From the NCBI GenBank assembly GCA_001724265.1, contig MEDY01000193.1:1-54132 (forward strand): a stretch of DNA of 54,132 nt, given 5' to 3'. The notes below the pieces were generated by a model. It had not been told where the DNA came from and did no database searches. It saw only the letters and a program-made list of their open reading frames with translations. Every line of letters begins with the position of its first letter. Within the stretch, counting starts at the first letter, position 1. Positions 60 through 53,298 of this stretch are shown piece after piece. This DNA is from Rhizaria sp. SCN 62-66 (Eukaryota). The position numbers and the translations under genes are program-made.

Positions 60-94
<35 letters not shown>

Positions 95-2310: not shown

Positions 2311-2345
<35 letters not shown>

Positions 2346-16427: not shown

Positions 16428-17708
16428 ATGCAGCGTACACCCCGCGCCCCCGCGTCTGGCGGTGGCGCTGTGCCCAGCTACGCATCGCCGCTGCGCTCGC
16501 GCCCGCGCTCGAGCTTCCAGCCGCCAGGCGCCGCCTCCTCCTCGTCCGCCGCATCGGGCCCCCCGCCCGGCGCGCTGGGCGGCCCTGCCTCGGCCGTGGC
16601 GGCAGGCGCGGGCCCCGCGATGCCGCCCGCGATGGCATCCTTTTTCGCTTCAGGCGCCGCCGCCGCCTTCAGCATCCAAGGCCAGGGCCAGGGCCAGATC
16701 GGTTACCAGCAGCAACTACAGCAGCAACAGCAGCAGCAACAGGGGCAGGGCATTGTTGTTGGCAGCGGGCGCGCCGCTGCGCAGGCGGCCGCTTCAGCCG
16801 CAGCCTTTGCTTCCCCTGCGTCTCCTAGCAGCAGCAGTAGCGGCAACGGTTCTGGCGCCACCAATGGAGCCGCCAGCAACGGCGGCGTTGGCGGCCCCGG
16901 CGCTGGTCCTAACGGCCGCCCCTGGACCAGCAGTGGCAGCGGCGGCGCTAGCAGCGGCAATGGTAGCAGCAACGCCCGCGCTCGCGGCCGGTCCCCGGGC
17001 CCCGCCCTCGGCTCCCCGCAGCACTACGCGCACAGCAACGGAAACGGCAACGGCAGTCACGCAGGCGCAGGCTCTGCGGCCGCGGTGCGCGCCTTCGGGC
17101 CCCTCGCCAGTGCCAGCGCCAACAGCGGCGACGGCAGTGGCGCTTCTGCGGCTGCAGGCCCCGCGCCCGCTCCTGCTGACTCGCACTACTATGGCTACGG
17201 CTACGGCTACCCTGCTCCCTCATCCTCGTGTTCCTCGTCATCATCGTCATCGTCTTCGGCTGCGGCAGCGGCGGCACCAACGGGCACCAACGGCGCTAGC
17301 GGCGGCGGGCCGCTGAGCCCCGGCTTCTCCCGCTGGAGCGCGGTGCTCTCGACGCCCAACAACGCCGCTCCAGAGCCACACAGCCACATCAGCGGTAACA
17401 ACGGCAGCGGCAACGGGCGTGCGACGTCCTCGGCCGGAGTGCGCCCCACCCCTGGCTACCTGGGCTCTAAACATAGCTACGGCAACAGCAACAGCAGCGG
17501 CAGCGGCAGCGGTGGCCAGTTCCGCCGGCCCGACTCCGCGGCCACGGCCACGGCTACTGCGGTCTCCGCCTCTGCAGTTACTATGGGCGGGGGCGGGGGC
17601 GCGTTCGCCGTGGGTGCGGCGGGCGCCGGCGCGCCGTCTGCGGCCGCGCTGCGCAGCGCGGGCCCCGGCGCTTCCCTCGCCATCGCGCGCGCGCTATCCG
17701 CACGCGTC

Positions 17709-17753
<45 letters not shown>

Positions 17754-18430
17754 TTTCAGCAGCAGCAGCAACAACAGCAACAGCACAATTCGGGCGCGAC
17801 TGATGCCTGGGGCAGTGGCGCCTGGACAGACCCACAGCAACAGCAGCAGCAGCAGCTGATTTACCATCAGAACAACAGCAACGGCGCTGCCGCCGGCGAT
17901 ACCGGTGCCCCCGGCTACTCGCTGCCCAAGCGGGCGCTGCACTCGCGCTCGCGCTCAGGCTCTGGCTCCGGCTCCGGCCTCGGAGGCGCGAATGCTAATA
18001 CTATCGTCAATTCTAACGCTAACCCGGGTGGTGCGAACGGCGGTCTCGCGGCGACGGCGCCGGTGGCGGCGATGGTGTTTCCCTTCCCCTTTGCCGCGCT
18101 CTCCCTCCATGGCACTAACAACAGCAACACTGCGAATACCAGCACAGCCATCGCGAACATCAGCTTAGCGCCGCCGCAGCATGCGCAGGGGGCGGCGCAG
18201 CGCCGCGGCCGCAGCGCTGCTTCCCGTCCCGGCACCAGCTCAGGGTCCTCCAGTGGCAGCGGCGGCGCCGCCAGCGGCAGTGGCAGCGGCAGCGGCGGCG
18301 GCGGCGGCGCTGGGGGCGGGGGCTATGGCTACGGGGAGATTCCCTTTAGCAACAAGGCCCGCGTGTCATCACAGCAACAACAACAGCAGCAACAGCATCA
18401 GCAGCAGCAATACGCTCAATACCAGTACCC

Positions 18431-18464
<34 letters not shown>

Positions 18465-18746
18465 GACAGCTTTTCTGCGACCGCCCCCGCTTCTAGCGCA
18501 GCGCCCGCGACGACCGCGACTGCGTAGGGCTCCCGGCCCGGCACGGCCGCCTCGGGCGCCGCGGCGGCACGGGCTACGGCCGCGGCCGCGGCGGCAGCAG
18601 CCTCCGCCGCCGCTGCCTCCGCCGCAGGCTATGGCAACAGCAGCGGCAGCGCAGTGGTCAGGCCCGCGTCTGGGTACTCTGTCTCGATTCCCTTCAGCTC
18701 CAACCTGAACAGCAACAGCAGCAATCGCGGTCACTACAATCAGCAG

Positions 18747-18782
<36 letters not shown>

Positions 18783-21700
18783 GCGCAGGCGCAGTTATGG
18801 GGCACCTGGGCTGCTCCGGTCTCTGTCCCGTTGCAAACGCACGCCAATAGCAATAACAATAACAACAACAGCAGCGGTCGCAACACCGTCTCTGGCTCTA
18901 GCTCTGGCTCTGCGTCCTCGCCCAGCTCTGGGGCCGGCCGCGGCCCTAGCTCCCCCCCGCCCGCGCGCCCCGACAGCGCCGCCGCCGCTAGCGCCAGCGC
19001 CAGCGCTGGCCATGGCGGTCACGGTAGCGGTCTGCGTACGCCGCGCCCGCCGCCCGGGCCGCCCGGCAGCGGCGCGGGCGCGGGCGCCGGCGGTCGCCTC
19101 ACCCCTCGCCGCATGGCCCCCTCCTCTGCGACGGGCTCGGCGACAGGCTCTGCAACCGCGTCTGCGTCGTCGTCGGCTGCCCACGGCCTCGGCGAGCCCG
19201 TCGCCCACAGCAATAACGGCATCAACAGCAATGCGCCGCAATACGGCGGCGGACGCGGCAGCGGCGGCAGCGGCTACGGCAGCACGTCGGGCTCGCCGCG
19301 CGCGTCCGCCCCCGCCACGCCGGCCCCCGGCTCCGGCGTGCTGGGTGTAAGTACCTCGGGCGGAAATGTAAGTACCGGCGTCAGCGGTATTGACCCCGCC
19401 GCCGCCGCCGCGTTCGGCTCGTTGCTGCGCTCCTCCCAACAGCAACAGCAGCAGCAGCAACAGTTTCAGCAGCAGCAGCAGCAGCAGCCGCGGCCTGCGA
19501 CCAGCATGCCACGCTCCCGCCCCCCGCCCTCGAACACTGTCAATTTCAACAGCGTCAACAGCAACGGCGCGGGTGCGGGGGTAGGTGGTTATGGCGCGGA
19601 GGCTGCGGTGCCAGTGCAGTCGCGACACGTGCCCACCCCGCGCAACGCCAGCGGCAGCCCCGACGTCGACAGCGGCAACAACGGCAACAGCAATAACGAC
19701 GGTAGTGGCAGTGGCAGTGCGGCGCCTCGCGCCCCCGCGTTCACGTTCGGCTCCAAGCCCGCGTTTGCCGCCAACGCCAGCGCTAGCGCTTCTGCCTCCG
19801 CTACAGCTGAGCCTACCAACGCCGCCGCTGCCACTGCTGCGGGCGAGGGCGCAGGCGCTGGCAGCGGGAGCAGCGGCGGGTCAATCGAGTGCCCCGAGCT
19901 GGCGCGCGTGGTGCCGCCCGCGACGACGAGCTCGAGCATCGCCGACTACGTGCTGGGCGAGGTCCTGGGCGAGGGCACCTTCGGCAAGGTGCGTCGCGGC
20001 ACGCATCGGCCGACGGGTGCGACCGTGGCCGTCAAGGTGCTGGAGCGTCGACGGATGGCGACCGAGGAGGACGCGGCGCGCGTATCGCGCGAGATTGCGC
20101 TGCTGTCGGCCGTAGACCACCCCAACGTGGTGCGGCTCTACGACGTGATCGCGACGCCCGCCGTGATCTACCTCATCATGGAATACTGCCCTCGCGGCCC
20201 ACTGTTTGACTTCATCGTTGCCAAGGGCCGCGTGTCGGAGCGCGAGGCGTGTCGCGTGCTGCACTGCATCCTCAACGGCGTCGCGCACTGCCACGCCGCC
20301 GACGTCGCTCACCGCGACCTCAAGCCCGAGAACGTGCTCCTCACCGATGACCCCGCCGTGGGGCTCAAGATCGTCGACTTCGGGCTCGGCAACCGCGCCG
20401 GCAACAACAGCAGCGGCGGCGACGGGCTGCTCAAGACGGCGTGCGGGTCGCCGTGCTATGCGGCGCCCGAGATGCTCGAGGGCCGCCGCTACCGGGGCCC
20501 GCTGGCCGACATGTGGTCTCTGGGCGTGATCCTCTACGCGCTGCTCTGCGGCTTCTTGCCCTTCGAGCACCCTAACACGAACAAGCTTTACAGCAAGATT
20601 AAGGCGGGCCGCTACGAGGTGCCATCGTTTGTCTCGGCGGGCGCGCGAGACCTCGTCTCGCGGCTGCTGACGACGGACCCCGCGCGGCGCTACACGCCCG
20701 CGCACGTGCGCGCGCACCCCTGGTACCGCGGGCTCGCCGTCCCCACCGATCCCGTCGTGCCGGGCGCCGCGCCGCTGCCGCCCGCCGCCGCCGCCGCGCG
20801 CCTGGGCGAGGACCCCTGGGCGGCACCCGACGCTGCCATCGTCGCCGACATGGTCGCAGGCGGCTACCAGCGCGCGGAGGTGCTGGCTGCGCTCGCCGGG
20901 CGCGTGCGCAGCCACGTCACCACGACCTACTTCCTGCTGCGCGCGCGGCTCCTGCGGGCGCTTGGCGCGCGCCACCCCGCGCCCATGTCCGGCTCCGTCG
21001 TCATCTCGCTCCCCGCGCCCTCCACCACCGCCACAGCGGCCAACCCCGCGGCGCCCTCCGCCGCTGCCGCTGCTGTCGCAGTCTCTGCTGCCGCCGCCGC
21101 CCCTGCGGCGGCCGTGGCTGCGGGTGTCGCCGTCACTGCCTCGCCCTCGCCCCGCGACAGCGCCACTTACCCCGCCACCGGCGCGAACGCTGCTGCTGCG
21201 TTTGCGAACGGCAACGGCAACGGCAGCGGTTCTGCTGCGGCGGCGGCGGCGTTCTCGCACCCCGCGCTGACTCAGCGCGCGGCGACGGCGCTGCCGCAGG
21301 GCGCCGGCGCTCCCATGGCCCACGGTCACTCCACTCTCACAGTCTCTAACGCCGTCGGCGTGAACGGCAACACTGCGCAAGCAGGCAGTAGCTCGAGCAG
21401 TGGCGCCGCGAGCACGGCGGTCAACGTCGCGTTCCGCGTCAGCGCGCCCGCCGCCGCCGGCCACCTCTACCTGCAGCAGCACACGCAACAGCAGCAGCAG
21501 CAGGGACTACAGCAGCAGAAGGCGCCGAGCCCGCCGCACGCGACGCCGCACGCGACGCTGCTGGCGGAGCGCGTGTCGAGTCCCCCCAGCCCCAGTCCCT
21601 CCTCGGCCGCCGCTGGCAACGCCGCCGCAGCCGCCGCCTCTGTTGCGGGGCCGCACGACCACCAGCAACAGCAGCACCAGCAGCAGTTGGACAACGGCGC

Positions 21701-22262
21701 TGGCGGCCGCTCGATGGCCTCGGCGGCGTCTGCGGCGACGACGGCGGCCGTGTCCACCTCGGCCTCCGCCGCGGGCTCTGCTGCGGGCTCCGGCTCGGGC
21801 TCTGCCTCGGGCACTGTACGCTCCTCGCGCGACAACGTTAGCGCCATCGCCGACACAGATGTAGACGCGGACGCGGATGACGTGCACGACAGCAGTGGCA
21901 GTCTGGGGCCCGAGGCCGCGACCACCCCGGCGGCGGCGCAGCAGCTGCAGCTGCAGAAGCAACAGCAGTACCAGCAGCAGCAGAAGCACGCGCAGTCAGA
22001 CCACGCGGCCAGCGGCCCTCTCGCTGCCTCCGCGCACGCCTCCGCGCTGCAGCGGCCGCCCACGGCCACGAGCGCGAGCGCGAGCGCGGCGTGGGCCGTG
22101 GCCTCGCAGGCCTTCGCTCCTGTCGTCGCCGGTGCGGGCGCGGGCGCTGGCGCTGCACACTCAGCGACTGCCACAAACGTCGCGCAGGAGGGCGAATACG
22201 GGGCACTGCGCAGGCCCGCCACGTCGGCGCGCGCGCGCGACCCCGTGGCGCCGCTGTCGTAA
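16428..22262 (+). CDS. SNF1/AMPK-family (CAMKL) Ser/Thr kinase with a UBA-like domain; about 1944 aa if the in-frame TAG at 18525-18527 is decoded
   Basis: The kinase domain (~19947-20725) has GEGTFGKV, VAVKVL, HRDLKPEN, DFG and LKTACGSPCYAAPE. A UBA-like segment ends HVTTTYFLL. ORFs 16428-18527 and 18654-22262 share one frame and are separated only by that TAG. The gene ends in TAA. Confidence 0.85.
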
Positions 22263-23190
22263 GCAGCCGTGGAAATGAATCGGGGGTGCAATCCATCGTG
22301 GATCCATGCAATGTGATTTTTTTTAATTTTTTTGCAATGCAAGATGACCATGATGGTCGATGCTAGAGGAGCCCTTTTCTGTGTCTTTCCTTCTTCTTTT
22401 TTTTGTCTAACTCTTTTGTTTTATTTCTTTCTTTATCCGTTCCTTCTTGAATGAGTGATCCCACCAACCACGAGTATTACTACTCCGCCTTAGCCGCACA
22501 CTTCAAACTCAACATACTTGTCGAATCTGCTTCTATCTCTGTAGCGACGGGCTTGGAGATGGAGATACGTTCACAACCGCGCATCTGCTACTTACGCCAC
22601 GGACGACAACTCTAGTCCGCCACTAATGGCACTGCGCATTACTCGACTCACCCTAACGTCAGTTTCGACACACATGTCTTTCTTTTGTTTTCATTACTAT
22701 TTCAACATGTTTTGTTCACAACGAATATATTAGTATATACCCTCATTATTATTCACGAATACTAATATCATTTCAGTTATTCAGCCCGTTTATCATCTCC
22801 ACATGTCAACAACTTACATGTGACGTGCTCATGCGCATTCGATTTGAGTTAATATATTATAAACAAGCCGAACATTCTTTGTAAGACAACGCGTTCTCTT
22901 GCCGCAAACTGTTGACATTATTATATAGTTTCTTGTGAGCTGTTCTAGACTTTGCATCAGTGTTGCTGAACAGCTGTTCACGGGACGCAGCAGTGTAGTT
23001 GAGTAGCAAGCGTGCATACTAATTTGCTGTTTTCACTGTAATCTGTGAAGCAGGGCGCTGAGTGACCAGCTGAGTTATCTGTTTTACAGTGCGTCCACGG
23101 TACTGCTGGTGTTTGTTGCGCACAACGAGGCTAGCTGAAAGCGCGTCAGCACGCACTCCCAGTTTTAGCATCAATGTAACAATAGCCAGC

Positions 23191-26100
23191 TCAGAACTGG
23201 CCGATGTTAGCATCGAAGCTAGCGTCAATAACACCCTGCGGCTGCTGCGGAGGCTGCATAAACTGCTGCTGCGGCTGCTGCATAGGGGCAGCACCAAAGT
23301 TGCTGTTGCTCATGCCCATGTTCATGTTGTTGCTACTCATCGCCATCCCCTGCTGCTGCTGCTGCATGGACATCGCCATGTTGTTATTGATGTTGAAATT
23401 GGGGTTGATCGAGCTGTTAAGCACAACAGGAGCGCCAAACTGCCCATGCTGCTGCTGCTGTTGCTGCTGGTGTGAGGGGGTACTTACACTGCCGCCAGCG
23501 TCAGCGGACATGAGCGAACCAACGTAGGGCTGCCCGCGCGCGCGCTCCTGCTCCTGCTCCTGCTCCTCGCGGGCCTGGACCCCCGCCCAGTCGACCGTGA
23601 CGCTTGCCCCCACGCGGAGGTACTCAGGATCTGCCTCTGCAATCTGCATCGCCTCAAGGAAGCGGGTGCGGTAAGCCAGCACGGTGTCGATGTGCTGGTT
23701 GTACTGCACCGCCAGCTGCAGTGCACGGGACCAGTTAAAGGTGCGGATGTTGAGCTTGACCGCACGGTGCACTGCGCAGAGGTGCGATAAAACACAATAG
23801 CAAATAGAAATATAGAAAGATATAGTACGTGTGGGTTAGAATGTTGAATGATATTATTATGCTGATGATAGCATATTTCAGATCTTTCTTATGGTTAGTC
23901 ATGTGTTTGAAAGTGAAGGCGCAGTGTTTGAAAGTTAGGTCGCAGTTTACGTACCGAGCCCGGCCTGAAGCAGCGTGCGCTCGGCCTCCTCGTGGTGCTT
24001 CGAGTACAGCAGTAGCTCGCTGGCGCGTGCCGCGGGTGACGGGAGCGACCGGATCTGCGTCATGTACTCGAGTTTGTCGACTTCCTCGAGAGCGGAGAAG
24101 GCGAGTTCGGCAACGTCGACCTGCTGGGACTGCACGGCCAGCACGGACAGGGCGGCCCACAGAGCGTCGGACTTCTCGCTCCGGCACAGGCTAAAGCAAA
24201 AGGAAAAAAAAAAACAAAAAAAAAACGGTAAACATCCAACGTGAGATATGGTCTCGTAAAAGCAAGCAAATCAACTTCGTTTCGATACAAAACATGTGTA
24301 ATACGATGAAACACAGCAAGGTCATTGATTTAGCACTTTAGAGTGCGCGATAAAGGATATATTGAGTGAAATGTGTGATAATAAAGCGTACCGCACGCAC
24401 TGCGCCCAGAGCCCCTGCGAGGCGAACTTGGACAGCAGCGCCGGGAAGGGCGAGAGCGCCAGAGTGACAGCGGCGCCGTCGAGACGGCGAACGGATGTGC
24501 GCTGGCCAGACACGCGAGTAATGCGGGGCAAGCGGCCCACGGTCACACCGCATTCGGTGCTGATGCGCGTGCGCTGCGCGATATCGCGGTCCTGAGAGGC
24601 AGGACCAAAAAACGGCGATGGTATATAAACACAGCAGCGAGAAATGTGAGAAGACGAAGTAAAGGGTGGCAGATTATAAACGCAGTTTCAGATGACAAAA
24701 TAATAATCATAGGTATAAATCCACTATTAAAATTCAAAAAAAAAACAAATCTAATGTTAAAACACGCCATATTAGCTGAGATTTCCCTTGTTTTGTGTTT
24801 TAGCATAAGACGCACCTGGTAGTAGGCGGCGGGGCAGATGAACGCGTGGTGCGTGCCGTCAGCGACTGCAACGAGGAGGTCCTGGGTCGAGTGCCACGCC
24901 GCCGAGTCGACCATGCCCAGCAGCTTCACCACGGTGCCCGGCGCGCCGCCCTTGAGCGCCTGTGCGAGATACAGGTCGCGGTTCCGGTCCAGGAAGTAAA
25001 GCCGCCTGGATGGAGGAATGCCACAGAGCAAACAGAGGAAACAGAGAACAAGAGGAAAAATAAAGGGGGAAAACGAATGTGAAAGTTGTGAGACAATAAT
25101 TCTTTGCTTGATATAATCGTAAAGTTCTGAAAATCCGACCCAAAATGTGCGATATGCGTATAATTCTGCTTCCATATAGATATACGCACCTCTCCGGGGA
25201 GAGCCCGGCCTGGTTGACGCCGATCTCGGTGATGTCGATGTCGTGCACAAGCGCCGCGGCGGCCGGCTTCCCGGTCAGCAGGTCGAGGATGTGGACGCGG
25301 CGACGCTGGGTGAGGTCGGAGACGATGATGACGTCGTCACCCAGGGACACCGTCGATGGCGACAGGAGCTCGGGCTTGATGCCCTATGACGGGACGAAGT
25401 GGCACAGTGACAAAAACAAGCATCAAGGCATAGAGAAGTGAGTCGGTAATATGATCGTTTTTAAACAGAAAACTAGGATATACTATGCACAATACAGTCT
25501 ACATCTTTGAATACAGTCTAAACACAGGTCATAATGATATATGGTAAGTATGAAAGCATACCTGGAGACGCGGCGAGCACAGCAGCTTGCCGTCATACTG
25601 AAACACGCGCAAGCCCTGAAGCGAGTCCGCCACAACAAACGCGTTTTTGCCCTGCACGATGAAGCTTGCGATGGAGCGCGACTCGATGATGTAGGGGGAC
25701 GCGAGCGCGTGCAAGGGGTAAATGCACAGCGACGTCGTGGTCGCGACGACGAGGTGACCGTGGGCGATCGACAGGTCTGTGATGCGGCCAGAGACCTCGA
25801 GCCTCTCCACTGCGTCGGGCAATGCAACGTCCCGCACCAGCACCTCGTTGCACGTGTTGGACGCGACCAGACACTCGATACCGTCCGCCTCGACGCGGCG
25901 GTGCGTGATGTCGGCGCGGTACACGGCACCCGAGGCGGCGGCGGCGGCAACGGTGGTGCCGTCGCGCGTCCAGTCGAGGCAGTAAAGCGAACCCGAGGTC
26001 GGGGTACTTACCCGGCTCAGGGACCACCCGGCGCGGTCGCACAGCACCAGCGACTCGAAGCTGCCGACTGCAAATACCCGGCCCGAAGGCGCCCAGCGCA

Positions 26101-27087
26101 CGGACGTCACGGGGAACTCGAGCGGCGAAGACTGGAAGAGGACGCGGCCGTAGGGATCCCAGACCTTGTAGGTGCAGTCCTCGCCGCCGGAGATGATGAG
26201 GTCGGTGATCGGGCACCAGTCGACGCACAGCACGGCGCCTGTGTGGGCCTTCCAGGCCGTCTCTTTCGCGCCTGGTGGCGAAAGACCAAAATCGAAACAA
26301 AAAGTAGAAAAAATGAATATTTGATGACAAAGATAAGTTCATATCGAAACAAAAAGACTTAGTATACAACAAGACGTTTTCTCTTTAAGAATTGGCAAAA
26401 ATAACAGCATTTATATAGAGCGACAAAAGAAAGCGTACCGGGAATAAGCGGCTTGATGATGAGGTCCTCGCCCGACGCAACCACAATGGCGTTCTGCGAC
26501 GGCGCCCATGCGAGCGCATACACACAGCCCGCTGTGGGGGCGAGACGCGAGCGCAGGTTGCCCTGTTGCGACCAGTGCTTGACGGCGCCGTCCTCGCCGC
26601 CGGTCGCCAACGCCGTCCCGTCGTGATTCCACGCGAGACACGTCACGCTGCCGTCGTGCGCCGCAAAGGAGCGGTCCAGGCGCCCGTTGCGGCCCATGAG
26701 CCGCACGGTGCCGTCGGAGCAGGAGACGGCGAAGGTGTCCTCCGCGGCGCCGCCGCGGGAGGTCACGCACCAGCGGAGCGCGGTGGGGCACGCGCCGGCC
26801 AAGTCCGCCACAGACGCGCTGCCTCTGCCGCTCGCCGCTGACGATGACGACGAGGAGGAGCCAGCGGTGGCGGCGGTGGTCGAGCTAGCGATGGCGTCGG
26901 CGTCGCGGGGGGCCTTGCGGATCATGCCGTCGTCGCCGGCCGAGAAAAGCTCGCCGTCAGAGGTCCAGGCAAGCGCAGTCGCGGCCTTGGAGTGCGTCAC
27001 AGGCACCACGGGGGCCACGGGCGCGGTGCCGCCGGAGCCGGAGGCGGAGGCGGCGGCGGTAGGGGTCTGCTGGAGGTTGAGCTTCAT
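23191..27087 (-). CDS. IFT80: Intraflagellar transport protein 80 (919 aa); exons 27087-26439, 26271-25562, 25383-25190, 25005-24816, 24591-24392, 24190-23955, 23771-23191
   Basis: WD40 motifs typical of IFT80: AHDGSVTCLAWNHDGTALATGGEDGAVKHWSQQGNLRS, WKAH..IISGGEDCTYKVWDPYGR, LDRNRDLY. The C-terminal region has AELAFSALEEVDK and NWSRALQLA..HIDTVLAYR. Six GT-AG introns splice in frame (2760 nt total). The gene ends in TGA. Confidence 0.95.
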
Positions 27088-28033
27088 CTTCTGCTTGCTG
27101 AGAGTCTGACACGCCTGCGGGGAACAGACGCGGGAGTGCTTGGGGATGAAACTGTGTGCTTGCGGTAGAGAAAGCGATGGGGTGGTCGCTTGTGGGAGGG
27201 TATGATGTAAAAAAGAAGGTGGGGGTGTCTGGGGGGAAGGCAAGGGAGCTGGCATGGTGAGGCAGAGGATTTCGAAAACGATTGGTGCTCAAGGCAAACC
27301 GAACAGGGGTCTGGTATCCGTTAAACGAAACAAAACAAAAATAAATGAAATAACACATGTGCGGAGTATACCATAGTCAAATAAAGATTCAAACGACGTT
27401 CAGACCATGCCACTACAGATACGACTTTTTGAAAGGCAGAGAGCAAGAGAGAGCAGAGGTAGTTGTCGATCGGTCGATCGGCCAGTCAGTCCAACTTCAA
27501 CGGCTAGTTCAACTGGGGATCGACGACTGGACTCTGACTGGCAAAGTAAGCCGCTGCTCACAGTCGGCCAACCTCGAGATAGCAGCCAGAGTGTCAGAGA
27601 GAAGGGAAATGATGGAAGAATTGAGCGGTGGATATCTCGCTGATCTTTCCGCCTGTGCATACTGTATACTGCTACCAGAGAGAAAATGCTGTTAATTACG
27701 CTTATTAATTTTTCTTTTTTCTCATGAACCCGTTCTTGAACCTTTGTTTCGAATTTCCTTGCACCCCACGCCACACAGCTCCCCAGCGAGCCTATAGTCC
27801 GCCTCCGCTTGTTCCTACAACAACAGCGCTGACGTTAATCCAACTTCCGACAACGCGTACGCGCGTCTGGTTTTACAGACTCGTTTCCTGCAAAGTTTCA
27901 CCGCGAAACTCTTTTATCTTCCCCTGCAACGAAGCTTCACAAGTTTCAGCGCAATCCTGCCGAATCTCGCGCTCTAAACCGCAGCCTTTGTTGTGTGACG
28001 TAACAACAACAAGTCACACACCCCGCACGCAAG
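27088..28033. promoter_or_regulatory. Divergent promoter region between IFT80 and DMAP1
   Basis: Head-to-head start codons about 950 bp apart, with lower GC than the exons. Confidence 0.5.
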
Positions 28034-31000
28034 ATGTCTGACATCGCGGACATCATGGGCATGGGCCAGCGCCCCACGGCCGCCGCAGCCGCCGAAGCCC
28101 AAGCTCTGTCTCTAGCAACACACAACACTTCTGCTGTAGGCGGTGGAGGCACCAGCGCGAATGCGACGTTCCTCGCCCCCTCGGCCTCCAGCTCCGGCTC
28201 TGTCCCCGGCACCGGCACCAACACTGCGCAGACAGGCCCCTTGCCTCTTGCTGGCGGGGCGATATTCTCAGCCACGAAGAAAAAAGTGCGCAAGGTGCCC
28301 CGTGAGGTGGCATCGCTGATGCTCGGTTACGACGACCACCCAATCTACGAGCTGCAGGTACGCTATTTTCACAGCTTTGATGCCCGATATAGTTGCATAT
28401 TGCGATAAAACTTTGCTTTATTCTATACCTTGCCATTATTTATCTGTGGTTTAATTTTTTGTTTATAGATCTTAATATCCTCCAAGTTTTCTATACCTCA
28501 CTGATTCTTTCTTTCTCTCTCTCTTTCTCCGTGGACTCATTCGCTTTCTGTTGCGACCGCTCTAGGCCGAGGAACAGGCCCGCAAGGCCGCCCTCTCGGC
28601 TGCCACGGCCGCGGGCGTTAAGGGCAAGTTCAAGCCGGCCGTTAAGTGGCGTTGGGCGCCCATCATCTCCTCCTCGCGCCGCCGCGTCGTGGCAAACCCG
28701 GAGTCCGATATGCTCTCGCTCTACCACTGGAGCAAGACAGAGTCCGAGGCCATGGACTATCGGTTCGCGAAAAACCACAAAATGATTAAAATGGTCGACT
28801 ACACGGACGAGGAGTACCAAATGTTCGGCACCGTTGACCCCAGCTGGACGCGGGAGGAGACGGACGCGCTCTTTAAGTTAAGCCGGCGGCTCGACTTGCG
28901 CTTCCTTGTTGTTCAAGACCAACTAGACGACTATCTCAGCATCAAGAGCAACGCCAACAGTTCTAGCAGCTCTAACAGCACCAATAGCTCATCGAGCAGT
29001 AGCTCTGTTGCCATGACTGACGACAGCTCTAGCTCTAGCTCAATCTCAAGCTCTAGCGCTAGTGCGAGTGCTCCAGATTCTACTGCAACGGCTGCTGCTG
29101 CTGCTGGTGGCAGTGGTGGTAACCGTCGCGGTCGTTCTGGTGCTGCGAAAAGTGGAGAGGTGACCGTGAGCGCCGTCAACGCGGACAGCTTCACGATCAA
29201 GCCGGAAGAGCTAGAGCAAGAGCTGCTGCGTCAACAACAGCAAAACGCCACCAATACGAATCCTAATGGTCGCAGTAGCAGCAGCAGAGCTAATGTAAGT
29301 TTATTCTTTGGCCAACCAGTGAACTGCAACGCCTCCAGTAGTCATATCAGCAACAGCTCTACTATGAGTGCGAGTGGCAGTCATGGTGTCACGACAGCTG
29401 ATGCTGTTGCTTTGCTGCTGCAACAACACAATAGCACTGGCTACAGCTCTCGTCCCTCTTCTCGCCGCAACTCTATTGTCAGCAACAACAACAATTATAA
29501 TAATAATAACAAAAACACGTATGGTGCTGCCGCTGTTGCTGCTGCGAATGCTCCGACCAACATCAAAGTTAAGCCGGAGCCTGGCTTGGAAACAAAAGAT
29601 GACAGCAACAACGACGACAACGATAATAACGCTGCTTTAAGCTCGAATGCTAATAATGCAACTGCTGTCTCTTCCCGCCTCCCGAGCCGGACGTTGGAGG
29701 ATTTGAAGCTGCGTTTTTACTCTCTACAGTACTTGCTCCTGCGCCACCGCGCGGCCCACTTAGAGGATGTAAGTGCCCTCCCGGCGGCCTCCATTCCGTT
29801 TGAGGCCTACTTGGAGACTGTGCGCAAGCGGTTCGACGACGTGCAGACGCGGTCGGCGCTGTCAAAGCCGCCGCCGCCGCTGCCGCCGCCGCCGCCGCCG
29901 CGGCCCTTGCCCGCACTCATCCCGCCCGAGAGCTACGACCGGCAGCGTTGGCTGGGAGCCGCCAAGGCCGCCGCCGCCGCCGCTGCCGCCGCAGATGCTG
30001 ATGCGGCTGCTGCGACGGGGGACGGTGACAACGGTGTCAAGGCGGAGGGCGCGGATGTTAAGCCGGAGGGCGGGGATGTTAAGCCGTCTTCCGCTGCTGG
30101 TGCTGCTGCTGCTGCTGGGGGGAGGAGGACGAGTGGCCGGAATGTTAGTGCCCCCTTACCCACTGGTTCAACGCCCGCGAAGGGTAAGGGTGGCAAGGCC
30201 TCCTCCTCTAAGGGCGGTGCCAAGGGCAGCTCTAAGGGCAAAGACAACGATGACGCTAATGCGTCTGAGAATGACGACGACAACAACAGCAGTAGCGACA
30301 AGAGTGACGCCGACGACGAGGACGAGGACAAGGCGCCCAAACTTAAAGTCGAGGCCGAGGAAGATGATGGCATCGAAGAGGTACGCATTCATGCAGATCT
30401 CTTCCAAACAACAACAAAACTGCTGATTCCTTTTTACATTTCTCACATTAAATTATATCTTGACATTTTTTTCTCTAATTTTTCTCACAAATGATGATAT
30501 TTCAGGGCAAGCCGAACCCGCGCGCGTGGACGTACCCCCTCGAGTTCCCTCCCCACAGCACCAGCGCCGTAAGTCTGCTCACCGAGCTCGGCCTCCCGAC
30601 CGACACCAACATCAACACGCTGCTGACTGCGTTCGAGAACGAGAGCAAAGCGCTCGACGTCGGCATCAAGCGCGTGCGGAAGGCGTTCGCGGAGGGAGAG
30701 AAGCAGCAGAAGAGGCGGCTTAAGTTCCTGCAGAAGCAGGAGGCGCAGATGTTGAAGCTCGCGAATAAGGCTTCGGCTAAGGGGGCCCGGAAGGGCGGCG
30801 CCTTCGGCAAGAAGGGCGGCTTGACTTCCGGCGCCGAGGGGTACTTAGACGGAACTACCGGCGGCGCTGCTGCGGGTGGTGGCAGCGGTCACAGCGCCAA
30901 GAGGCATGGTTTCGCTGCTTTTGGCGGCGACAACGACGAGGACGATAGCGACGGCAACAACAACAACGATAACAGTGACGACGATGACACCGTGGACATC

Positions 31001-33196: not shown

Positions 33197-33227
<31 letters not shown>

Positions 33228-35077: not shown

Positions 35078-35595
35078 CGAACAGAACTGAAGACAGAACA
35101 CGGCAAGCAACAATGAGAGCAACACGACGAAACGTAGTTGTGATAGATCTCTTAGTTTTTGTTGGTGCAGGATATAATAGCTCATTTACGATAGTCTTTA
35201 TTTCAGTATATACTAGAATACATAACATTTGATTCTCTTCCTTTCGGTTATCCTCGTCAAGGTGTGACTTTAATGGTATCGTCGCCGTGTCAAAAGTAAT
35301 TCGTGGCTGGGGCCAAATCAAAGAGAGATTGAATCGGGGCTGGTTGGCTTTAAGAGCAGCTGTGTATCTATGTCATTACACCATTGCTCGAACTTTAGCA
35401 GCGATAACTAGAGTTCAATAGAAGAAAATGCGGTGGTGTTTAATTCTTTTCTGACATTCCCTTGCTTTACCCTCTTAAATCATATGCTCCGCACACAGAC
35501 ACCACCCCCTTGTGCCAGCCCTGCCTTGCAGCCGCCTCCTTCACTCTCCCACGAGCCCACAGTCCCTCTGAGACTTGCCCGCTGTGAGAGACACG

Positions 35596-37793
35596 ATGTT
35601 CGTGGTTTTGCTTGGCCTCGCGCTGCTGCTGCTACTCACCGGCTTCAGCGTCGTCCGCTACTACAGCGAGAAGACGACCGCCCACCCCTTATCGACCCTG
35701 ACAACGTCCCTCGCGCTCGCGTGCTCGCTCGCGTGCGTGCTCCTGATCCCGCTCGACGTCTTCGTCACCTCGGGCGCCGCCGCCGACGCCGCCGCAGCCG
35801 CGGCCGCCGCTGCCGCAGCCGCGGTGGTTAATAAGGCCGGCTCTGCAGCCTCTGCCTCCGCCGCCAGCACCAGCGCCGGCGCCCACCTCGCATCGCTGCT
35901 CGCGCCCGTCGCTGCGCCGGTGTTCGAGAACCTCAACGGACTCCTGATCAAGAACGCTTACTACGTCCTTTTTGCGGTTATTGCGACACTGGCGTTTTTC
36001 TTGCTGCCTTTTTCGTACTTTTTCGTCGAGGATGCCAACGACGATGACGACCTCTTCAACCAAGGCGGCGGCCGCAGCGGCGGCTGCTTCGACCGCTCGA
36101 TCAACTCCCTCCGCAACACCGCCATCTTCATTGCCGTCCTCGTGCTCTGCGTCGTCTTCGCTCTGTTCTACACTCCCGTCACAGCCAGCCTCCGCACCGA
36201 GGACCCGGCCAAACTTAAAGACGTGCACCATTGGGTCGACACCATCCTCCACGAGTGGGACGCCAACGCCCTAGAGCGTGGCCTAACTTTGGCGATCGGC
36301 GCCATGACCGTGCTCGGCCTACTCAACCTCTGCTACTACACTGCCTACGGGCTCGTCGCGCTGCCCGTCGCGCTGCTCAAGCGGCGGCCTAACTTAGAGT
36401 CGCAGCAGCTCTCGGTCGAGTACAACGCCATCACCCAACAGCAGAAGATCGCCCTGCTTGAGGAGAAGCTCTCCGACTCGACGCTCACCAGCGCCAAGCT
36501 GCGCGCGAAATTCTCCGAAGAGCTGCAAATTCTCCGCACACAGCACCGCGCCAACGCCAAGCGCCACGAGCGGCTGCAGAGCCAGAGCGCCTCCGAGAAC
36601 TCGTGCTCCGTCGACTGTGTCGCCACTACCGCGTGGAAGTGGCTCTACCCGCTCCGCTTTGCTATCGGGCTTGCACTGCTGGCGGTCGCCGCCAGCGTCG
36701 CGCTCGCGCTAGCGCTGTCGGGCGCCGACAAGCTCCTCCACTCGGGCTGCGGGCTCAAATGCGGCTTTATCTTAAACACGCCGGCGTGGGGGTTCAACCC
36801 CGTGGATATGCTGCTGCTGTACATCTCCCGCTTTTTCCCGCTGGATTTTGTCGTTTTCACTGTCTTTACGGTCTATATGCTGGTGTGCACGCTCTACGGC
36901 ATCATCACACTCGGTATCCGCGTCTTTGGGTTCCAGGTGTTCAAAGTTAAGCCGCGCCGCACGTGGCCCCAAGCACTGCTGCTGCTGTGCGCAATCGTGA
37001 TGTTTACTCTGCTCGGTATCATGGTGCAAACGCTCACTATCGCGCCCCAGTACGCCACCTTTGGCCGCCAGACATACCTCGCCGCGGCTGACAGCAACGG
37101 CTTGCTTTCCAACGCAGGCGGCTTACCTTCCGCGTCCGATGCGGCGTCGCTGAGCAAGGAGATGTATCTGCCGTGCACTCTGTCGCAGTCGACCCGCGTA
37201 GCGACCACGCTCGCGGCCTCTGGTAGGGCCAGTGACGCGGTGACGCACACGCAGTGCCTGCCCACGCGCCTCTCAAAGGTCACCGCGAGGTACGTGCATA
37301 TCGCGCCATATATACGCACTGTAAATTGCAAAAATATAAGTGTGTCTATAACGTTTTTTACTATTGTTTTATTTTGATATGTCTTTATCTCAGTGTGAAC
37401 AACACACTTTTCGTCACGTTGGCTCACTGTTGCTGATTGCTGCCTGCTGTTGCTTTCTCTTGTTGTATGTTTAGGTTGACTGTGACGTACCCGATTTTTT
37501 CAGTCCTCTTCTTCTGCGCGCAGTGGCTGTTCGTGGCCATGATTGTCGGCACCGGGGTCCTCCGCTGCATGCGTTCTGGTAACTCGAGCGGAACCTCTGG
37601 GTCGAGCAGCTACGACGACGAAGAAGGCGGCAACCGCCACAAGGACTACGACGACGACAACGACGACGACGACGAAGACAGCGCCAGTGACGACGATCAC
37701 GGCAAGAGCCGTGGCGGCGGCCGCAGTGGCAGCGGCAGTGCCTATATGCCGCTGAGGTCCAACGCGTCCTCGCGCCGCGGGCTACTAAAGTGA
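35596..37793 (+). CDS. LMBRD1: LMBR1-family membrane protein, LMBRD1 (lysosomal cobalamin exporter escort)-like, 670 aa; exons 35596-37289, 37475-37793
   Basis: Multiple TM segments, plus LIPLDVF, FFLLPFSYFF.E, YTAYGLVALP, CGLKCGFIL..NPVD..FPLDF and APQYATFGRQ. Intron 37290-37474. The gene ends in TGA. Confidence 0.85.
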
Positions 37794-38832: not shown

Positions 38833-41652
38833 TTACATGCTGACCTTGACGACCTTCCACTGGAAGATGCATTTGTCGCCGCCGCCGGCAGAGAAAAGAT
38901 AGCGTTCGGTCAGGTCGAAGCGGATGCGCGGGACGTGCGCCGAGTGGCCCTTGTGGGCGCGGAAGCCGTTGTCGGGCTTGGCCGTAGGCGTGTCCTTGGC
39001 GGCGGGGAAGCGAAAGAGGTTCACCAGGCCTTCGTCGGTGCCGCAGGCAACGAGAGTGCGCGAGGGGGACGCGTCGACGCAGTTGATGTTGCTGTAGTCC
39101 TGCTCCTCGCTGCCGTCACCCTTGCGCCAGATGCCCATCACGGACCAGTCGAACTTGACCGAGACGGTGGCCCACGCAACGTCCTTGACCAGCGTTGCCG
39201 ACCGCTCCTGCGCGCTGTTCTTGAGCGCGCCCTCATCAATGGCGTGGTAAAGCAGCTCGTACGACAGCGAGATGGAGCGCAGGTAGGCGCTGTCGGTGCT
39301 GAAGTCGATGGCGAGTACGGCGGCCGTATGCTCCGTGAGCACCTTCTGCACCTTGTAGCCCGCGTCAACCGAGAGCAGGCAGATGCAGATGCCGTGCGTG
39401 CCGACCGCAAGCGTGCGGCCTGAGGGCGAGTAGCGCAGCGTCTCGATCCAGTTCTGGCTCTGGTTCGCCACCTGCCGCTTCCCGTGCGGGTTGAGGTCCA
39501 CGTACGCGACGCGCTCTAAGGTCGCGGCATCGAACACGGCCAGGAAGCCCTCGTTGGTGCCGACCGCAAGATGCTTGCCATCGGGCGAGTAGTCGATCGC
39601 GCGCGCCATCTGGTTGATGGGGAACGAGCTCGTCGTGCTCGCCGTGTTCACCTTGGGCATCTTGCCCTTGACAGTGTTGATCGGCGCCACCGCGACGGCC
39701 TGCTTGGTCGCCGAGTCCCACACGCACACCTGGTTGTCCTCGCCCACCGTAGCGTAGTGCGTGTTCCGGGGGTGCGGCGCCAGGCCCCAAACCTCGCCGT
39801 CGAAGTGCCCCCGCATCACCGGCGCGGGCAGCTGCTGGTAGTTCACGCTCGTGCCCAACGGCTCCTGCTTGTCGTAGGGAATCTCAAAGATCTCGCTGCC
39901 GCGCGTGCCAATAAGCAGGTCGCCATACGCGTTCGAGGACACAGAGCGCACGGCGTACTGGAACTCGGCCTGCCAGACGGGCTTGAGCTGCGAATCGAGC
40001 ACACACACGCGCCGGTCGTCGCCGCCCGTCACGAAGTGCTTGCCTTGTGGCGTGATGCTGTTGATCTTGCTCTCGTGCACGTGGAACACCTTGCGCGCGG
40101 TCCCGCGGACGTAGACATACACGCCGCCGTCGCCGCCCGCGATGAGCGTCTGGTTGCCCGTGAGCGTGTACACGGCGTGGGTATAAAGCTGGCGCGGCAC
40201 GTTGGTCATCGCGTTCTTGTTCTTGAGCTTGCCGGACGCGGCGTCGAAGGTCCAGAAGGCAATGTGGCAGTTGCCCACGGTCACGAGCTCGTCGCTCGCG
40301 CTCGTGGGGTTCCACGCAATGCTCAGGATAGACGTCTTGGCCGCACCTGTGGGCGTGCAAGTGTACAAGCAAGCAAGCAAAGAAAGGAATTAAGACAATA
40401 CAAATTAGGAATATGACATTTTTAGAATGTAAAAATTAACAGAAAGATTTTGAACAGTAAAAGATTGTTATTTGTCAAAATGTATCATTGTACGTCTTGA
40501 TACAAGTGAGATATAGCGTAATATTGTACGTACTGGGCCCGGAGGCGATCTGCTTGCCGCCCTTGACCTTCCAGTCCCACACGGTGACCGTGAGCTTATC
40601 GTCGCACGTGGCCGTGGCGAGGTAGTTGCCGCAGGGCGAAAACGCCAGCGCCGTGATGGCGCGCACACCAGCGTTCTCGATCTTCCACTGTTCGCGGGTG
40701 ACGGTATTGTGGATGCAGATCGACGGCGGGGCGGAGCGGCCGTTCTCCACGGTGGCGATCTGACCGGTGGCGACGATGTTGGGGTCCTTGGGGTGCTGCG
40801 TCAGGGAGACAACGTCGTCGTTGTGGCCCGTAAAGAAGGTCTGGGCGCGCGTCTCGGGGTCCATCGTGATAACGAGCGCCGCCGCAGGGTACACGATGTG
40901 GCCCTGAGACAGGAGGGGGGAGAATGAAGAGAAAACAACAAAATTGACCGTCCGATAACAAATATAAACGGTTAGCGAGATGAAAGTTTAGTTCAGTAGT
41001 GATTCGTGTAGTTATACATCGTTTGATGAAGAATAAACTTGATTGGTGTTGATTAAAAATGTTAGAAGTTGCATTTCGTGAAAGTGGAATTTGAAGCATC
41101 TACGAAAACGGCAAGTCACAAAAGAGCGAACAGAGTCCGCAAGACAAACTGAAAACAAAACAAAACTTGTGCAGTAGATGAAAAACACTACTTAACACTA
41201 GAACAACAGAAATAAATCTTCTTATAATGTTATATGCTGGAGATATCGTGAATGAACCGTACCTCTGCGTTGTAGATGAGGTTGTTGCGGGAGTCGTGGC
41301 AGCGGTATCCGTGGACAAAGTCCAGCGACAGCCCCTGGGAGGGTGCGCTCTTGTTGATGGGGGGCGCGTTCGACGGCGCGACCTTGACAACGCCCAGGAA
41401 CGGCTTGACAGCGAGGCCACGCGTGGCGCTAGTCTCTCCAGCTTCGCCGTTCTCGAGGAGCTCAAGCTCGGCCTCGATCTCATCGCGGGTGCGGAAAACG
41501 CCCTCTTCGTCGTCGGGATTGGGCTCAGAGCTCTCGTCGATGGCAACGTCAAGATCTTCGTCAATCGGGGTCGCCGCGCGGGGCGGGGACGGCGCGGCGG
41601 GGGCCGGCGCGGGGGTCGGGGCGGAGGTGGACGGGCCGGGGAGGGCAGGCAT
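38833..41652 (-). CDS. Echinoderm microtubule-associated protein-like (EML/EMAP; HELP + WD40 TAPE domain), ~757 aa; exons 41652-41263, 40903-40534, 40346-38833
   Basis: HELP motif APSQGLSLDFVHGYRCHDSRNNL, plus FFTGHNDDV, GHFDGEVWGLAPHP, GHSAHV and SAGGGDKCIFQW. The gene ends in TAA. The start is uncertain because a candidate acceptor at 41664 could indicate an upstream exon. Confidence 0.9.
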
Positions 41653-42621
41653 CGAACCTCGGTCTGGGGCGAGACGTAATACATGGGTGAGAAAGAGACT
41701 TAGCAACGAAATATTAAAACTTCAAAGAGAAACATCAATTAATAATCTAGAGTCGCGCTTAGAAGCCGAAGTGTCGAGAGGATACAGCATGACAGAAGTG
41801 GGCAGAAATCGTAACTTTGAACGGGCCAGTCTCTGAGGAGCTGCCACCCGTTACGATTTCGTTTCGACGGCAGGGCCGAAAAAAGACCGGCGAACGATGA
41901 ACGAACGAAGCGGAGGTCGCTGACTGGGACTGATTCATGGGGTGATATTAGTAGGTCGCAGGGAGAGGTAAAATGGCCGTCTATTACGAAAGTACAGTGT
42001 GTCTAGGAGATAATATGCTTGAAAGTGCCGTTAGTCGTCATTACTGCAATGCAGCTGGCTGTATAGGTGTCGGTATCTTGAGTCTCATATCCCCCTTTAG
42101 AACCCCTCTGCTCACCCCCTTTCGTGTCTCTCTTCGTCCCTTTGCACGCCTTGTCTCGCACAGCTACGCCAACAAAACCACGCTGTCAGCAAACAACTTG
42201 TACGTTTGTGTGTTTTCATTGCGGTACCGGTTTCTGTTTGCTTTACCCCGGCCCCAGAGCCCCCTCTGAAGGCAACCCTCTCACAGGCCCTGTCGCTGTG
42301 TCTCTTGAGCACTGCTCTCTCTCTGTCTCGCCAGCGCCTGCAAGTCTGCCCCGTGTTGCAGCAACAGCAATAGTGTCTGCGCTAGAGCAATAGCCCTTCT
42401 GTGAGCTTGCACTGCTGTCGTTTCTCGCCGCAACAACAACAACAACACCAGCGCGTCAGGTCATTTCTTCGTCACTATCCAGCTCACACGCAAGTCGACA
42501 GGAGAATTTGGACGTATTGAGGCACAACAAGCGATATACCTGCTGACACCGACAACAACCGCTCTATCTCTTCTTGTTTTAACTGTCGTAGCCTTGCGCG
42601 GCTGCTGAGCTTTAAAGCAAG
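41653..42621. promoter_or_regulatory. Divergent promoter region between the EML gene and the STK32-like kinase
   Basis: Head-to-head arrangement spanning about 970 bp, with a short (CAA)n tract near 42431 in the kinase leader. Confidence 0.45.
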
Positions 42622-44356: not shown

Positions 44357-44388
<32 letters not shown>

Positions 44389-45101
44389 GGAGGGGGAGTG
44401 CCAGCGCCGGCGCTAGTGCTCGCGGCAGTGAAAGGAGGAACTCTGCGTCGACCTCTAAAGGTGCTGGCGGCCACGCGACCCCTTTAGACGGCGTAAGTAC
44501 CCCTTCGGAGCAGCGCAACTCCCCACGGCTTCGCGCCCGGGCCAGCGCCAGTGCGAGTGCCAATGGTGGAGTTGGCGGCAGCAGCAGCAGCCGCAACCCC
44601 AGCCGCAGCCCCAGTCTATCCCCTGTCCCTGATAACAATGTAAGTGGCGGGTACAACGCTCTAAGTGCCACCACGAAGTCCAGCCCTAGTCCCAGCCCGA
44701 GCCCCCGACTCAATCCTCAAAACAACAACAGCAACAACAACAACAACTACAACGCGAGCACGAGCACGAGTACGAGCGTCAATAGTAACGGGCGGGGGAT
44801 AGTTGCGCTCAACTTAGACGGCAACAATAACAACAGCAACAACAACAACAACAACCAGAGCCGTGCGAGCAGCCGCGCCCACAGTCGTCAGCCCAGCCTC
44901 GGCGGCAACGGCAACAACATCAACAACATCAACAGCAACAGCAGCAGTGGGAATGCGACGAGTAATAGCGCCAGTCCCAGCAACGCGATGGTGGGGATTG
45001 AGATTGACAGCGTTGTCATCGGCCCTATCGGCAGCAACGGCGGCGGCACGAAGACGAAGGAGGGCAGCGGCAGCGGTCGAAAGAAGGGCGGGAAGAAATA
45101 A
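42622..45101 (+). CDS. AGC-group Ser/Thr kinase, STK32/YANK-like, 681 aa; exons 42622-42693, 42889-43429, 43669-45101
   Basis: MGGCLS..VDMTHFEE|YQTIGRGGFGTV, YALKRM, MQGGDLKY, YRDLKPENALLD, DFG, G|TYSYMSPE, and an AGC tail KPPITP..ANC. Both introns are GTACG..AG and in frame. The gene ends in TAA. Confidence 0.85.
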
Positions 45102-49183: not shown

Positions 49184-49651
49184 GTTCTCTTTTGAGCGCG
49201 CTAAGTACCGAGCACGTACCCCCTTAGACTGAGACGTGACGTCTTCGAGGTGGAGATTTGTTGTCACCTCAGCTCTTAAGCTTAAGTGTGATTCAGATAC
49301 AAGAAGTTTGTTCTGTTGATATATATTTTACTCGAGAGTGTTTCAAGTTATATTTTGTTATGAGCTGTATGCTATAAATGTATTTGATGCAAAGTTAATG
49401 TTTATCGAATATAAAGCCCGAATGAATTCCTCATTTATTATTAAGTTTGCTTACTCTGATCTTACTCTGATCTGACTTGTTCACATCCACTGTTCGTGAT
49501 TGATTTAAAGCTCGTGTTTTAGTGGCATATCTAGGTCCTAAATTGGAATATAATAAAATCAGTAAGTGTATTCTTCTGTCTAAGTATCGAGATATAAGTA
49601 TCTTTGTAAAAGTATAATCAAGTTCGCGACAGTAGCTGAACTACATTAGCT

Positions 49652-50561
49652 TTAGTAATAATAGTGCTGTTGCTGTTGCTGCTGCTCTTGCTCTTGCTGC
49701 AGCTATTGTTGTTGCTGCAACAGCGACAACACCCCTTTAGCCCGGCTAAGTGTTTCTTCCTGCTGCTGTACGACCCGCAGCAGCAGCGCCTCCTGGTGTC
49801 GCTGCTGCTCACGGTCACTGCCAGCGGTGTTGACAGCGAAAGTGCGGCTATCCCCCACAGGAAACGGCGACTGCGCCTGCGAATGTGGGCTACTGCTGCT
49901 CAAAATCTGTGGCGGCGGCTGAGAGCACAGCTGCGACAGCGACAGCGACGGCTGCTGCTACTGCTGCTGCTGTTGTTGTTGCTGTTGTGAATCATAGCTG
50001 TTGTAACTGTTGTTGTTGTAAGGGGCTTGCGGCGTCTGATGATACCTGCAGTTGCCTCCGCGTAAGTACGACATCGGGGGCTGTAAGGGTGCCGCGTACT
50101 TAGCCGTCGGGTTCAGGGGGTACTTAGACTCCGGGTAAGGGTGCTGGCTGTGTGCGACGCCGCAGCTCGCACGACTGTGAGCGCCTGAGAACCCCTGGGC
50201 AACACGTGAGTGACCGTGAACAGCAGCAGCAGCAGCAGCAGTACCACCACCATAGCTGTTGTTGTTCTGCGAAGTACTTACATCGGTGTAAGTGTCTCCG
50301 TCGGAGAACATTGTGGGGTAGAACACGTAACGGCCAGTGCTGTAATCAACGTAGCCGCTGTTGCTGTCACTGCTGCTGCTGCCGCTGCTGCCGCTGCTGT
50401 AGCTGTTGTAGCCTTGATGGGAGCCCGCGTTAGAGCTGGCAACGGAGCTACTAATGGTGTTGTGCATGTGGCTCGTGCTGTTCGTGTTGTTGTTGCTGTT
50501 ATAGCTGTTATTTGATGACACTGGGAAAGGTCCGCGAGGTTGCGGCCTCTGCTGCCAAGAC

Positions 50562-50617
<56 letters not shown>

Positions 50618-50973
50618 ACTGCGACTGCTGCTCCTGTTGCTGCCTCCCGCGCCGCGGTTCGCGTAATCACGATTGCTGCTACCACTGCTAATGCGCGACC
50701 GGGCGGCCGCAGAGCCATAGCCAGAGGAGGGGCCAGGGTGGGGCTTGGAGCGGGACAGAGTGCTGGGAGTGTTTTCGATTGCGGCGAGGCGCTCGTAGTG
50801 CTTTTGCATGTTTTTGTACACCATGGTCTTGCCAGACACGCTATATAGCGACATGGGAGAGACACATAACGAGGCATTGCGTTAGTATTGAGCTGAAAGA
50901 GTAAAGAGAGAGAGAGTTTAGCAAGGCGATGAAGGGAAACGTACTTGTTCTTATCGGGAAGAAACAGAGGCAT
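49652..50973 (-). CDS. Gln/Ser-rich uncharacterised protein, ~405 aa, containing two in-frame TAG codons; exons 50973-50945, 50840-49652
   Basis: Exon 1 (MPLFLPDKN) is joined in frame to VSGKTMVYKNMQKHYERL by a GTACGT..TAG intron (50944-50841) containing TACTAAC. The same frame continues through TAG 49960-49958 and TAG 49705-49703 to TAA 49654-49652, after which the DNA becomes AT-rich. Confidence 0.68.

Positions 50974-51370: not shown

Positions 51371-53298
<1,928 letters not shown>

Follow-up and report, generated by a model that had tools for sequence, protein, structure and literature searches.

Three in-frame TAG codons in a GC-rich eukaryotic contig: possible tolerated ambers in glutamine-rich genes or, less probably, an early stage of UAG reassignment

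Genetic codes in which UAG alone is read as glutamine (Gln, Q), with UAA and UGA kept as stops, are described for Iotanema spirale (Fornicata), with 204 in-frame UAG codons in 126 genes (PMC5304391), and for Hartmannula sinica and Trochilia petrani (Phyllopharyngea), in which UAG makes up 18.5-31.8% of the Gln codons and occurs internally in 78-84% of genes (PMC11687900). UAG is read as leucine (Leu) in three phyllopharyngean metagenome-assembled genomes from TARA (PMC11687900) and in the rhizarian exLh, where 71 genes contain 384 in-frame UAG codons, most of them at positions of conserved Leu, and gene ends comprise 56 UAA, 15 UGA and no UAG (PMC5304391). The name 'Genetic code 15' appears in the abstract of a phage study. 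The present analysis concerns a stretch of 54,132 nucleotides (the window) that forms positions 1 to 54,132 of contig MEDY01000193.1 (assembly GCA_001724265.1, Rhizaria sp. SCN 62-66). Within it, three in-frame TAG codons interrupt two genes: an AMPK/SNF1-like (CAMKL) protein kinase gene, and an orphan low-complexity gene, here called LC. The account that we tentatively favour is that these codons are premature ambers, tolerated or leaky, in Q-rich genes of low complexity, the code of the organism being unaltered.

Two other described situations bear on stop codons inside genes. For yeast, which uses the standard code, a 2026 preprint describes 2-8% read-through of premature stops in Q-rich genes, with insertion of Gln (PMC13192750). 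This read-through is favoured by a QXQ context, by C at position +4, which weakens termination, and by a high content of Gln codons, and the alleles can be phenotypically silent; SNF5 Q225X and Q267X were among the test alleles, and the transcripts tested contained 7-20% Gln (PMC13192750). Condylostoma, Parduczia and Blastocrithidia, for their part, use codes without dedicated stops (PMC5304391). A UAG that is sense within a gene of the window would resemble these codes in that the place of a stop within the mRNA would decide its meaning. It would differ in kind and frequency, as stops of two or three kinds are frequent there, whereas TAG alone is found here, at 3 in 12,102 codons.

The kinase gene (16428..22262, +) reads as 1944 codons in one frame, closed by TAA at 22260-22262, with the first TAG (18525-18527, +) at codon 700. 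This TAG stands in the context GCG TAG GGC, outside the poly-Gln runs, with 753 open codons before it and 1244 after it in the same frame; in that frame an ATG next occurs at 19113. An intact protein kinase domain (PF00069, E 2.1e-70; 19947..20723, +) lies downstream of it. The LC gene (49652..50854, -) is rich in Q, N and S and spans about 400 codons when read through both of its TAGs to the TAA at 49654-49652. Its first TAG, the second of the three (49960-49958, -), is embedded in a CAG/CAA run as CAG TAG CAG, with C at +4, 307 open codons before it and 84 after it. The third (49705-49703, -) closes a CAA run as CAA TAG CTG, again with C at +4, and is followed by 16 codons and the TAA. A sequence-only reading of the window had placed in-frame TAGs at 18525 (+) and at 49960 and 49705 (-); all three were confirmed in place.

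Open frames alone prove nothing here, because the GC-rich window abounds in single stops with at least 80 open codons on each side: the six frames contain 59 of them (20 TAG, 31 TGA and 8 TAA). Coding signal was scored with a codon model trained on the window's other genes, with 10 TAA or TGA stops and their in-frame continuations as controls. Between 16272 and 19946 the model preferred the frame of TAG 18525 in nearly all 150-nt windows, the exceptions being two poly-CAG windows. The score was +315.6 for 16428-18524 and +91.5 for the 195 codons from the TAG to the next ATG, and the translation and the GC profile of the three codon positions (GC1-3) are likewise coding-like across the TAG. In LC, the score was +153.8 before the first TAG and +13.4 for the 84 codons behind TAG 49960, whose GC1-3 values are 0.69/0.45/0.70; the 16-codon tail after TAG 49705, too short for scoring, gave -2.4. 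The continuations past the 10 control stops scored -15 to -52 and contained 3-10 stops each within 84 codons. Dinucleotide shuffles reached the observed score in none of 2000 cases for TAG 18525 and in 4 of 2000 for TAG 49960. The 150 nt following the control stops are AT-rich, with a GC fraction of 0.31-0.52; the corresponding values are 0.81 behind TAG 18525 and 0.63 behind TAG 49960. In-frame TAGs within coding-like frames exceed chance. Two further candidates were discarded: TAG 41102 (-) lies in non-coding sequence, and TAG 25386 (-) is an intron acceptor in the IFT80 gene.

On the favoured account the three TAGs would be real amber codons in sequence that is translated, or was translated until very recently, in that frame. 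Their likeliest origin would be a C-to-T change of CAG in low-complexity segments that are very rich in CAG and under weak constraint; two of the three sites belong to Gln runs. Ambers of this kind, whether premature or newly terminal, may be tolerated, as the protein parts lost to truncation would be dispensable. Partial read-through by a near-cognate tRNA-Gln, as in the Q-rich transcripts of yeast, is a possible addition to this scheme. The two genes are among the most Q-rich of the window: Gln accounts for 152 of 1943 codons in the kinase gene (7.8%, and 11.4% in its N-terminal part) and for 64 of 398 in LC (16%), against 2.5-5.9% in most other genes. As in yeast, the TAGs lie in Q-rich low-complexity sequence. 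TAG 49960 reproduces the favourable arrangement exactly, with CAG-TAG-CAG and C at +4, TAG 49705 meets only the 5' Gln side and the +4 C, and TAG 18525 has no Gln flanks. Given the read-through of Q-rich yeast genes, the CAG-TAG-CAG context and these Gln contents, leaky ambers in the two genes are plausible without any change of code. In yeast, full-length protein amounts to only 2-8%; read-through of the present genes is putative.

The distribution of the TAGs within LC points in the same direction. The last 101 codons carry two of the three TAGs yet only about 8.5% of the CAG codons (p of at least two under an even spread, ~0.02), and the codon model gives 0.52 per codon ahead of the first TAG against 0.16 behind it. 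This clustering and the drop in score agree with relaxed constraint behind a stop that mostly works. LC has two TAGs and no frameshift; it matches no Pfam family, and a protein search with its read-through product found no homologue in the range of 220-700 amino acids. The strand opposite the LC tail is also open at 49685-49970 (+), with CTG/Leu-type codons, and there the codon model favours the minus frame (-337.6, against -351 or worse).

The rarity of TAG bears on its meaning. The 12,102 confident codons comprise 568 CAG, 140 CAA and three in-frame TAG, so that TAG contributes 0.42% of the 711 Gln-type codons and is confined to two of the 11 genes; the earlier remark that TAG is very rare relative to CAG and CAA holds. 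A neutral Gln codon would be expected about 120 times if the TTG/CTG ratio of 0.21 is taken as a guide to C and T at the first position. With 3 seen against these ~120, there is strong selection against in-frame TAG, which is the behaviour of a stop codon. Little can be read into the exclusive occurrence of TAG at the three interruptions, since ~71% of transition nonsense changes would yield TAG (from a separate codon count with 547 CAG, 162 CAA and the other precursor codons), and three out of three has a p of ~0.35. None of the three TAGs lies within a Pfam-matched domain. With a usage so far below that of Hartmannula, Trochilia, Iotanema and exLh, an established reassignment is excluded, and a change of code could only be at a stage that is very recent or under strong counter-selection.

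The terminators of the 11 genes were examined in the same light. Seven end in TAA (22262, 35077, 38833, 45101, 49183, 49652 and 51371), four in TGA (10534, 11300, 23191 and 37793) and none in TAG, in agreement with the list given by the sequence-only reading. Its view that UAA and UGA remain stops is likewise borne out, as these two codons close all 11 genes and neither splits any coding-like block. Nine of the 11 ends belong to genes without an internal TAG, and four (those of the EML, Vps33-type Sec1, AAA and IFT80 genes) are anchored because a Pfam match extends almost to the stop. The absence of TAG from 11 ends has low power: with a usual TAG share of 12-28%, its chance is by our estimate ~0.03-0.25. 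The base following the stop is G at eight ends, A at two and C at one, a purine in 10 of 11.

Against this background, it is possible, though we consider it unlikely, that UAG has been or is being reassigned to sense, probably Gln, with UAA and UGA terminating and with the low usage reflecting recent, inefficient or ambiguous decoding. The coding signal running through TAGs 18525 and 49960, unlike the 10 control stops, argues for this, as do the lack of TAG among the 11 terminators, the lack of in-frame TAA or TGA in coding-like blocks, the placement of two TAGs inside Gln runs, and a downstream kinase domain that is intact and has changed no faster than that of a relative. Precedents exist in the UAG-only codes with UAA and UGA stops reported in PMC5304391 and PMC11687900. 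With Iotanema, Hartmannula and Trochilia the window shares TAG as the only stop found in frame, termination by TAA and TGA, most often by TAA (7 of 11), and two TAGs where Gln would be expected. It differs from Hartmannula and Trochilia in a usage ~45-75 times lower (0.42% against 18.5-31.8%), in the share of genes affected (2 of 11 against ~80%) and in having no TAG that can be aligned to a conserved position, and it differs from the UAG=Gln organisms in being GC-rich and in that no suppressor tRNA was seen; ARAGORN and Rfam detected no tRNA gene or other Rfam RNA in the window at all, and eRF1 is not among the genes of the window. The exLh and TARA codes are similar in that only UAG is in frame and UAA and UGA terminate, whereas two of the three TAGs here are found in Gln runs. 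The clustering of two TAGs at one C-terminus and the relative's kinase, which has no in-frame TAG, also speak against reassignment. Of the claim that UAG is sense, the coding-like frames crossed by TAG, the TAA/TGA stops and the absence of TAG from the 11 ends stand, whereas a code change of the whole organism is not demonstrated from the window. The early or ambiguous stage that the sequence-only reading had entered as a caveat is the only form of the code-change hypothesis that survives: a GC-rich, flagellated eukaryote of wastewater and bioreactors that has lost the UAG terminator and decodes UAG, probably as Gln, at a very early or ambiguous stage, the codon having returned so far in CAG-rich, weakly constrained genes alone, which we regard as a doubtful proposition. 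If so, it would show UAG-only reassignment in the course of arising. A literature search returned no report of a wastewater eukaryote with such a code.

The remaining explanations are far less probable. If the TAGs were ordinary terminators, the kinase locus would comprise two genes, an N-terminal one closing at 18527 and a kinase gene starting at 19113, and LC would end at 49958 with a GC-rich 3' untranslated region. The stretches 16428-18527 and 50854-49958 (LC) are indeed complete open reading frames from ATG to stop; the 10 other ends, however, are followed by AT-rich, stop-filled sequence, whereas TAG 18525 is followed by sequence with a GC of 0.81 and a score of +91.5. The kinase locus offers no room for a terminator and a promoter, because all other intergenic gaps are AT-rich and at least ~470 bp long, and this explanation is the most improbable of those considered. 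Scarcely more credible is the removal of the TAGs by atypical, GC-rich introns. Spans from GT to AG whose length is divisible by three do cover each TAG (46, 111 and 143 such spans for the three sites, as arises by chance), and for LC some have donor-like hexamers (GTAAGT, GTACGC or GTACAG). The LC spans have a GC of 0.51-0.58 and would excise sequence that scores as coding, so that an intron there is improbable, though less firmly so than in the kinase gene, and the spans around TAG 18525 have a GC of at least 0.61 and no GTA[ACT][GA] donor. No AT-rich, intron-like segment was found between 16110 and 22289, and the codon model is positive up to and past the TAGs. The candidates are thus unlike the three introns defined in the window, which are 115-178 nt long with GTAYG donors, pyrimidine-rich ends and a YAG acceptor, the two that were measured being far more AT-rich than the exons. 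Somewhat less remote, yet still improbable, is an effect of the metagenome assembly, in the form of an error of the consensus or a captured minor strain or allele; most cells would then have CAG or some other sense codon at these sites. The metagenomic source, the hard-to-assemble CAG repeats at two of the sites and the lack of an independent piece across 18525 leave room for it. Contig pieces of four sequencing runs were compared with the window over 8300-28299; CAG/GCN repeats dominated the resulting tables, and the joints listed are repeat artefacts. Eight listed pieces from one run (X1, ~16.3 kb) and eight from another (X3, ~9.6 kb), which come from different studies, show no substitution and a single 1-nt gap. 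Among the pieces listed none bridges 17471-19501, no variant is recorded at 18525-18527 in the four runs, and the long open reading frames are free of frameshifts. A minor allele or an error at the TAGs is accordingly judged unlikely.

Several observations weigh against the account of tolerated or leaky ambers with the code unchanged. For an intact genome, two genes hit among 11 are many, and no TAG serves as a terminator at the 11 ends. The TAGs do not resemble evolved terminators, because two of the three have C at +4 against a purine at 10 of the 11 stops. The interruptions are also singular within the window: among the 46 GC-rich blocks, the only case of a stop with a long coding-like segment of one frame on either side is TAG 18525, neighbouring coding-like open reading frames in the same frame comprise only the kinase pair, the LC pair and one pair split by an intronic TGA, and TAA or TGA is absent in frame from the coding-like blocks. 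The TAG in the kinase gene lacks Gln context and lies upstream of the catalytic domain. With this domain free of frameshifts and further stops and not accelerated, a premature stop at 18525 would need to be very recent or efficiently read through.

The state of this domain was assessed with the closest sequences at hand. Its best protein match is 53% identical, and the named matches are alveolates and oomycetes at 43-48%. The N-terminal part of the kinase gave seven low-complexity matches with E values of 5.6e-5 or weaker, and the Vps33 protein of the window has matches of 33-39% identity; the window's own proteins are absent from the protein-search matches. Among 80 metagenome loci only two are close, L001 and L004, with 83% and 77% identity of the kinase protein. 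These loci (L001, 1-2678; L004, 1-1985) come from two other metagenome assemblies and represent a related species with a GC of ~64%; L001 is one T short in a T-run relative to L004, a probable assembly indel. Both stop short of the TAG site, L001 beginning ~0.9 kb downstream of it, and no homologue that reaches any of the three TAGs was found, so there is no alignable conserved position. The low-complexity C-terminal region of the related kinase can be aligned with that of the window. The relative's kinase has no in-frame TAG in ~870 codons and terminates with TAA. In a relative-rate count with 40 outgroups, 9 changes are unique to the window and 7 to L001, which argues that the kinase domain has not been drifting. 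A decaying pseudogene was considered for the kinase and rejected: instead of multiple lesions and relaxed constraint, the gene has one TAG, no frameshift in 1944 codons and this near-equal count of 9 and 7. The motif G-Y-x-x-IPFS followed by poly-Gln occurs at 18330-18345 and again at 18685-18700, on either side of TAG 18525 and in the same frame, a repetition that hints at an internal duplication in the N-terminal region of the kinase.

The window derives from a metagenome, and its contig recurs in sequencing runs from bioreactors, wastewater and activated sludge. Sampled words of 16400-22400 are present at 0.89-0.95 in three DNA runs (X1-X3); runs with a small share of the stretch were left out of the analysis. 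The first 22 kb (1-22300) has a GC of ~72%, against 52-58% in 22300-54132, the value dropping sharply where the kinase gene ends. Giant low-complexity genes rich in A, S, G, Q and N make up the GC-rich portion. The transition is not an assembly chimera, because one independent X1 contig spans it (pieces 19502-23438 and 23575-28299). In a poly(A) metatranscriptome run (X5), a contig covering 8425-8914 starts inside the intron 8383-8521 and continues into the following exon without a joint. Since this contig begins within an intron, X5 probably holds unspliced RNA or DNA of the organism, and another X5 contig (16753-17237) was rejected as proof that the kinase gene is transcribed. The viral contigs and prokaryote genome contigs searched contained nothing from this organism.

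Most gene identities in the window rest on Pfam matches. From the left, a giant cyclin-like gene (exons 1-8382 and 8522-10534, +), open at the window start and at least 3464 codons long, ends in TGA 10532..10534. Its sole family signal, Cyclin_N at the end of exon 1, is weak (E 2.5e-4, under the Pfam cut-off), and its intron (8383..8521, +; 139 nt, phase 0, GC 0.34) runs from GTACGG to TTGTAG. A 1201-codon gene without a Pfam family (11300-14905, -; TGA 11300..11302) precedes the kinase gene, and the IFT80 gene, which has several exons (23191-27288, -; TGA 23191..23193), follows it. The IFT80 intron (25384..25561, -; 178 nt, GC 0.37, GTATGC...CATAG) has TAG 25386-25384 as its acceptor. Further along are a SANT/DAMP1-like gene (28566-35077, +; TAA 35075..35077), an LMBR1-like gene ending at 37793 (+; TGA 37791..37793) and the EML gene (38833-41721, -; TAA 38833..38835), in which the second beta-propeller profile stops 5 residues before the terminator. 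The EML protein (38836-40389, -) is present in the ESM Atlas from residue 8 onward, so the contig or an identical one went through a public gene-calling pipeline. A second kinase gene ends at 45101 (+; TAA 45099..45101) and the Vps33-type Sec1 gene at 49183 (+; TAA 49181..49183). Beyond LC, an AAA ATPase gene ends at 51371 (-; TAA 51371..51373); its intron (53140..53254, -; 115 nt, GTACGT...TGCAG) contains an in-frame TGA at 53181-53179. Two of the three introns end in TAG; a TAG just before an exon is thus common and can mimic an in-frame stop.

Under either meaning of UAG, gene callers split the kinase gene and truncate LC. If UAG is not sense in this organism, the window is a caution for screens of genetic codes, as CAG-rich low-complexity genes yield TAGs that imitate a UAG-to-Gln code. 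If the ambers are leaky, as the yeast data suggest they may be, reassigned codons and premature stops would no longer be sharply distinct. If UAG is sense, the organism would be one of very few with a UAG-only reassignment, unusual for its GC-rich genome and very low usage, and the early steps of stop reassignment, by codon capture or through an ambiguous intermediate, would become testable in an organism that recurs and can be sampled.

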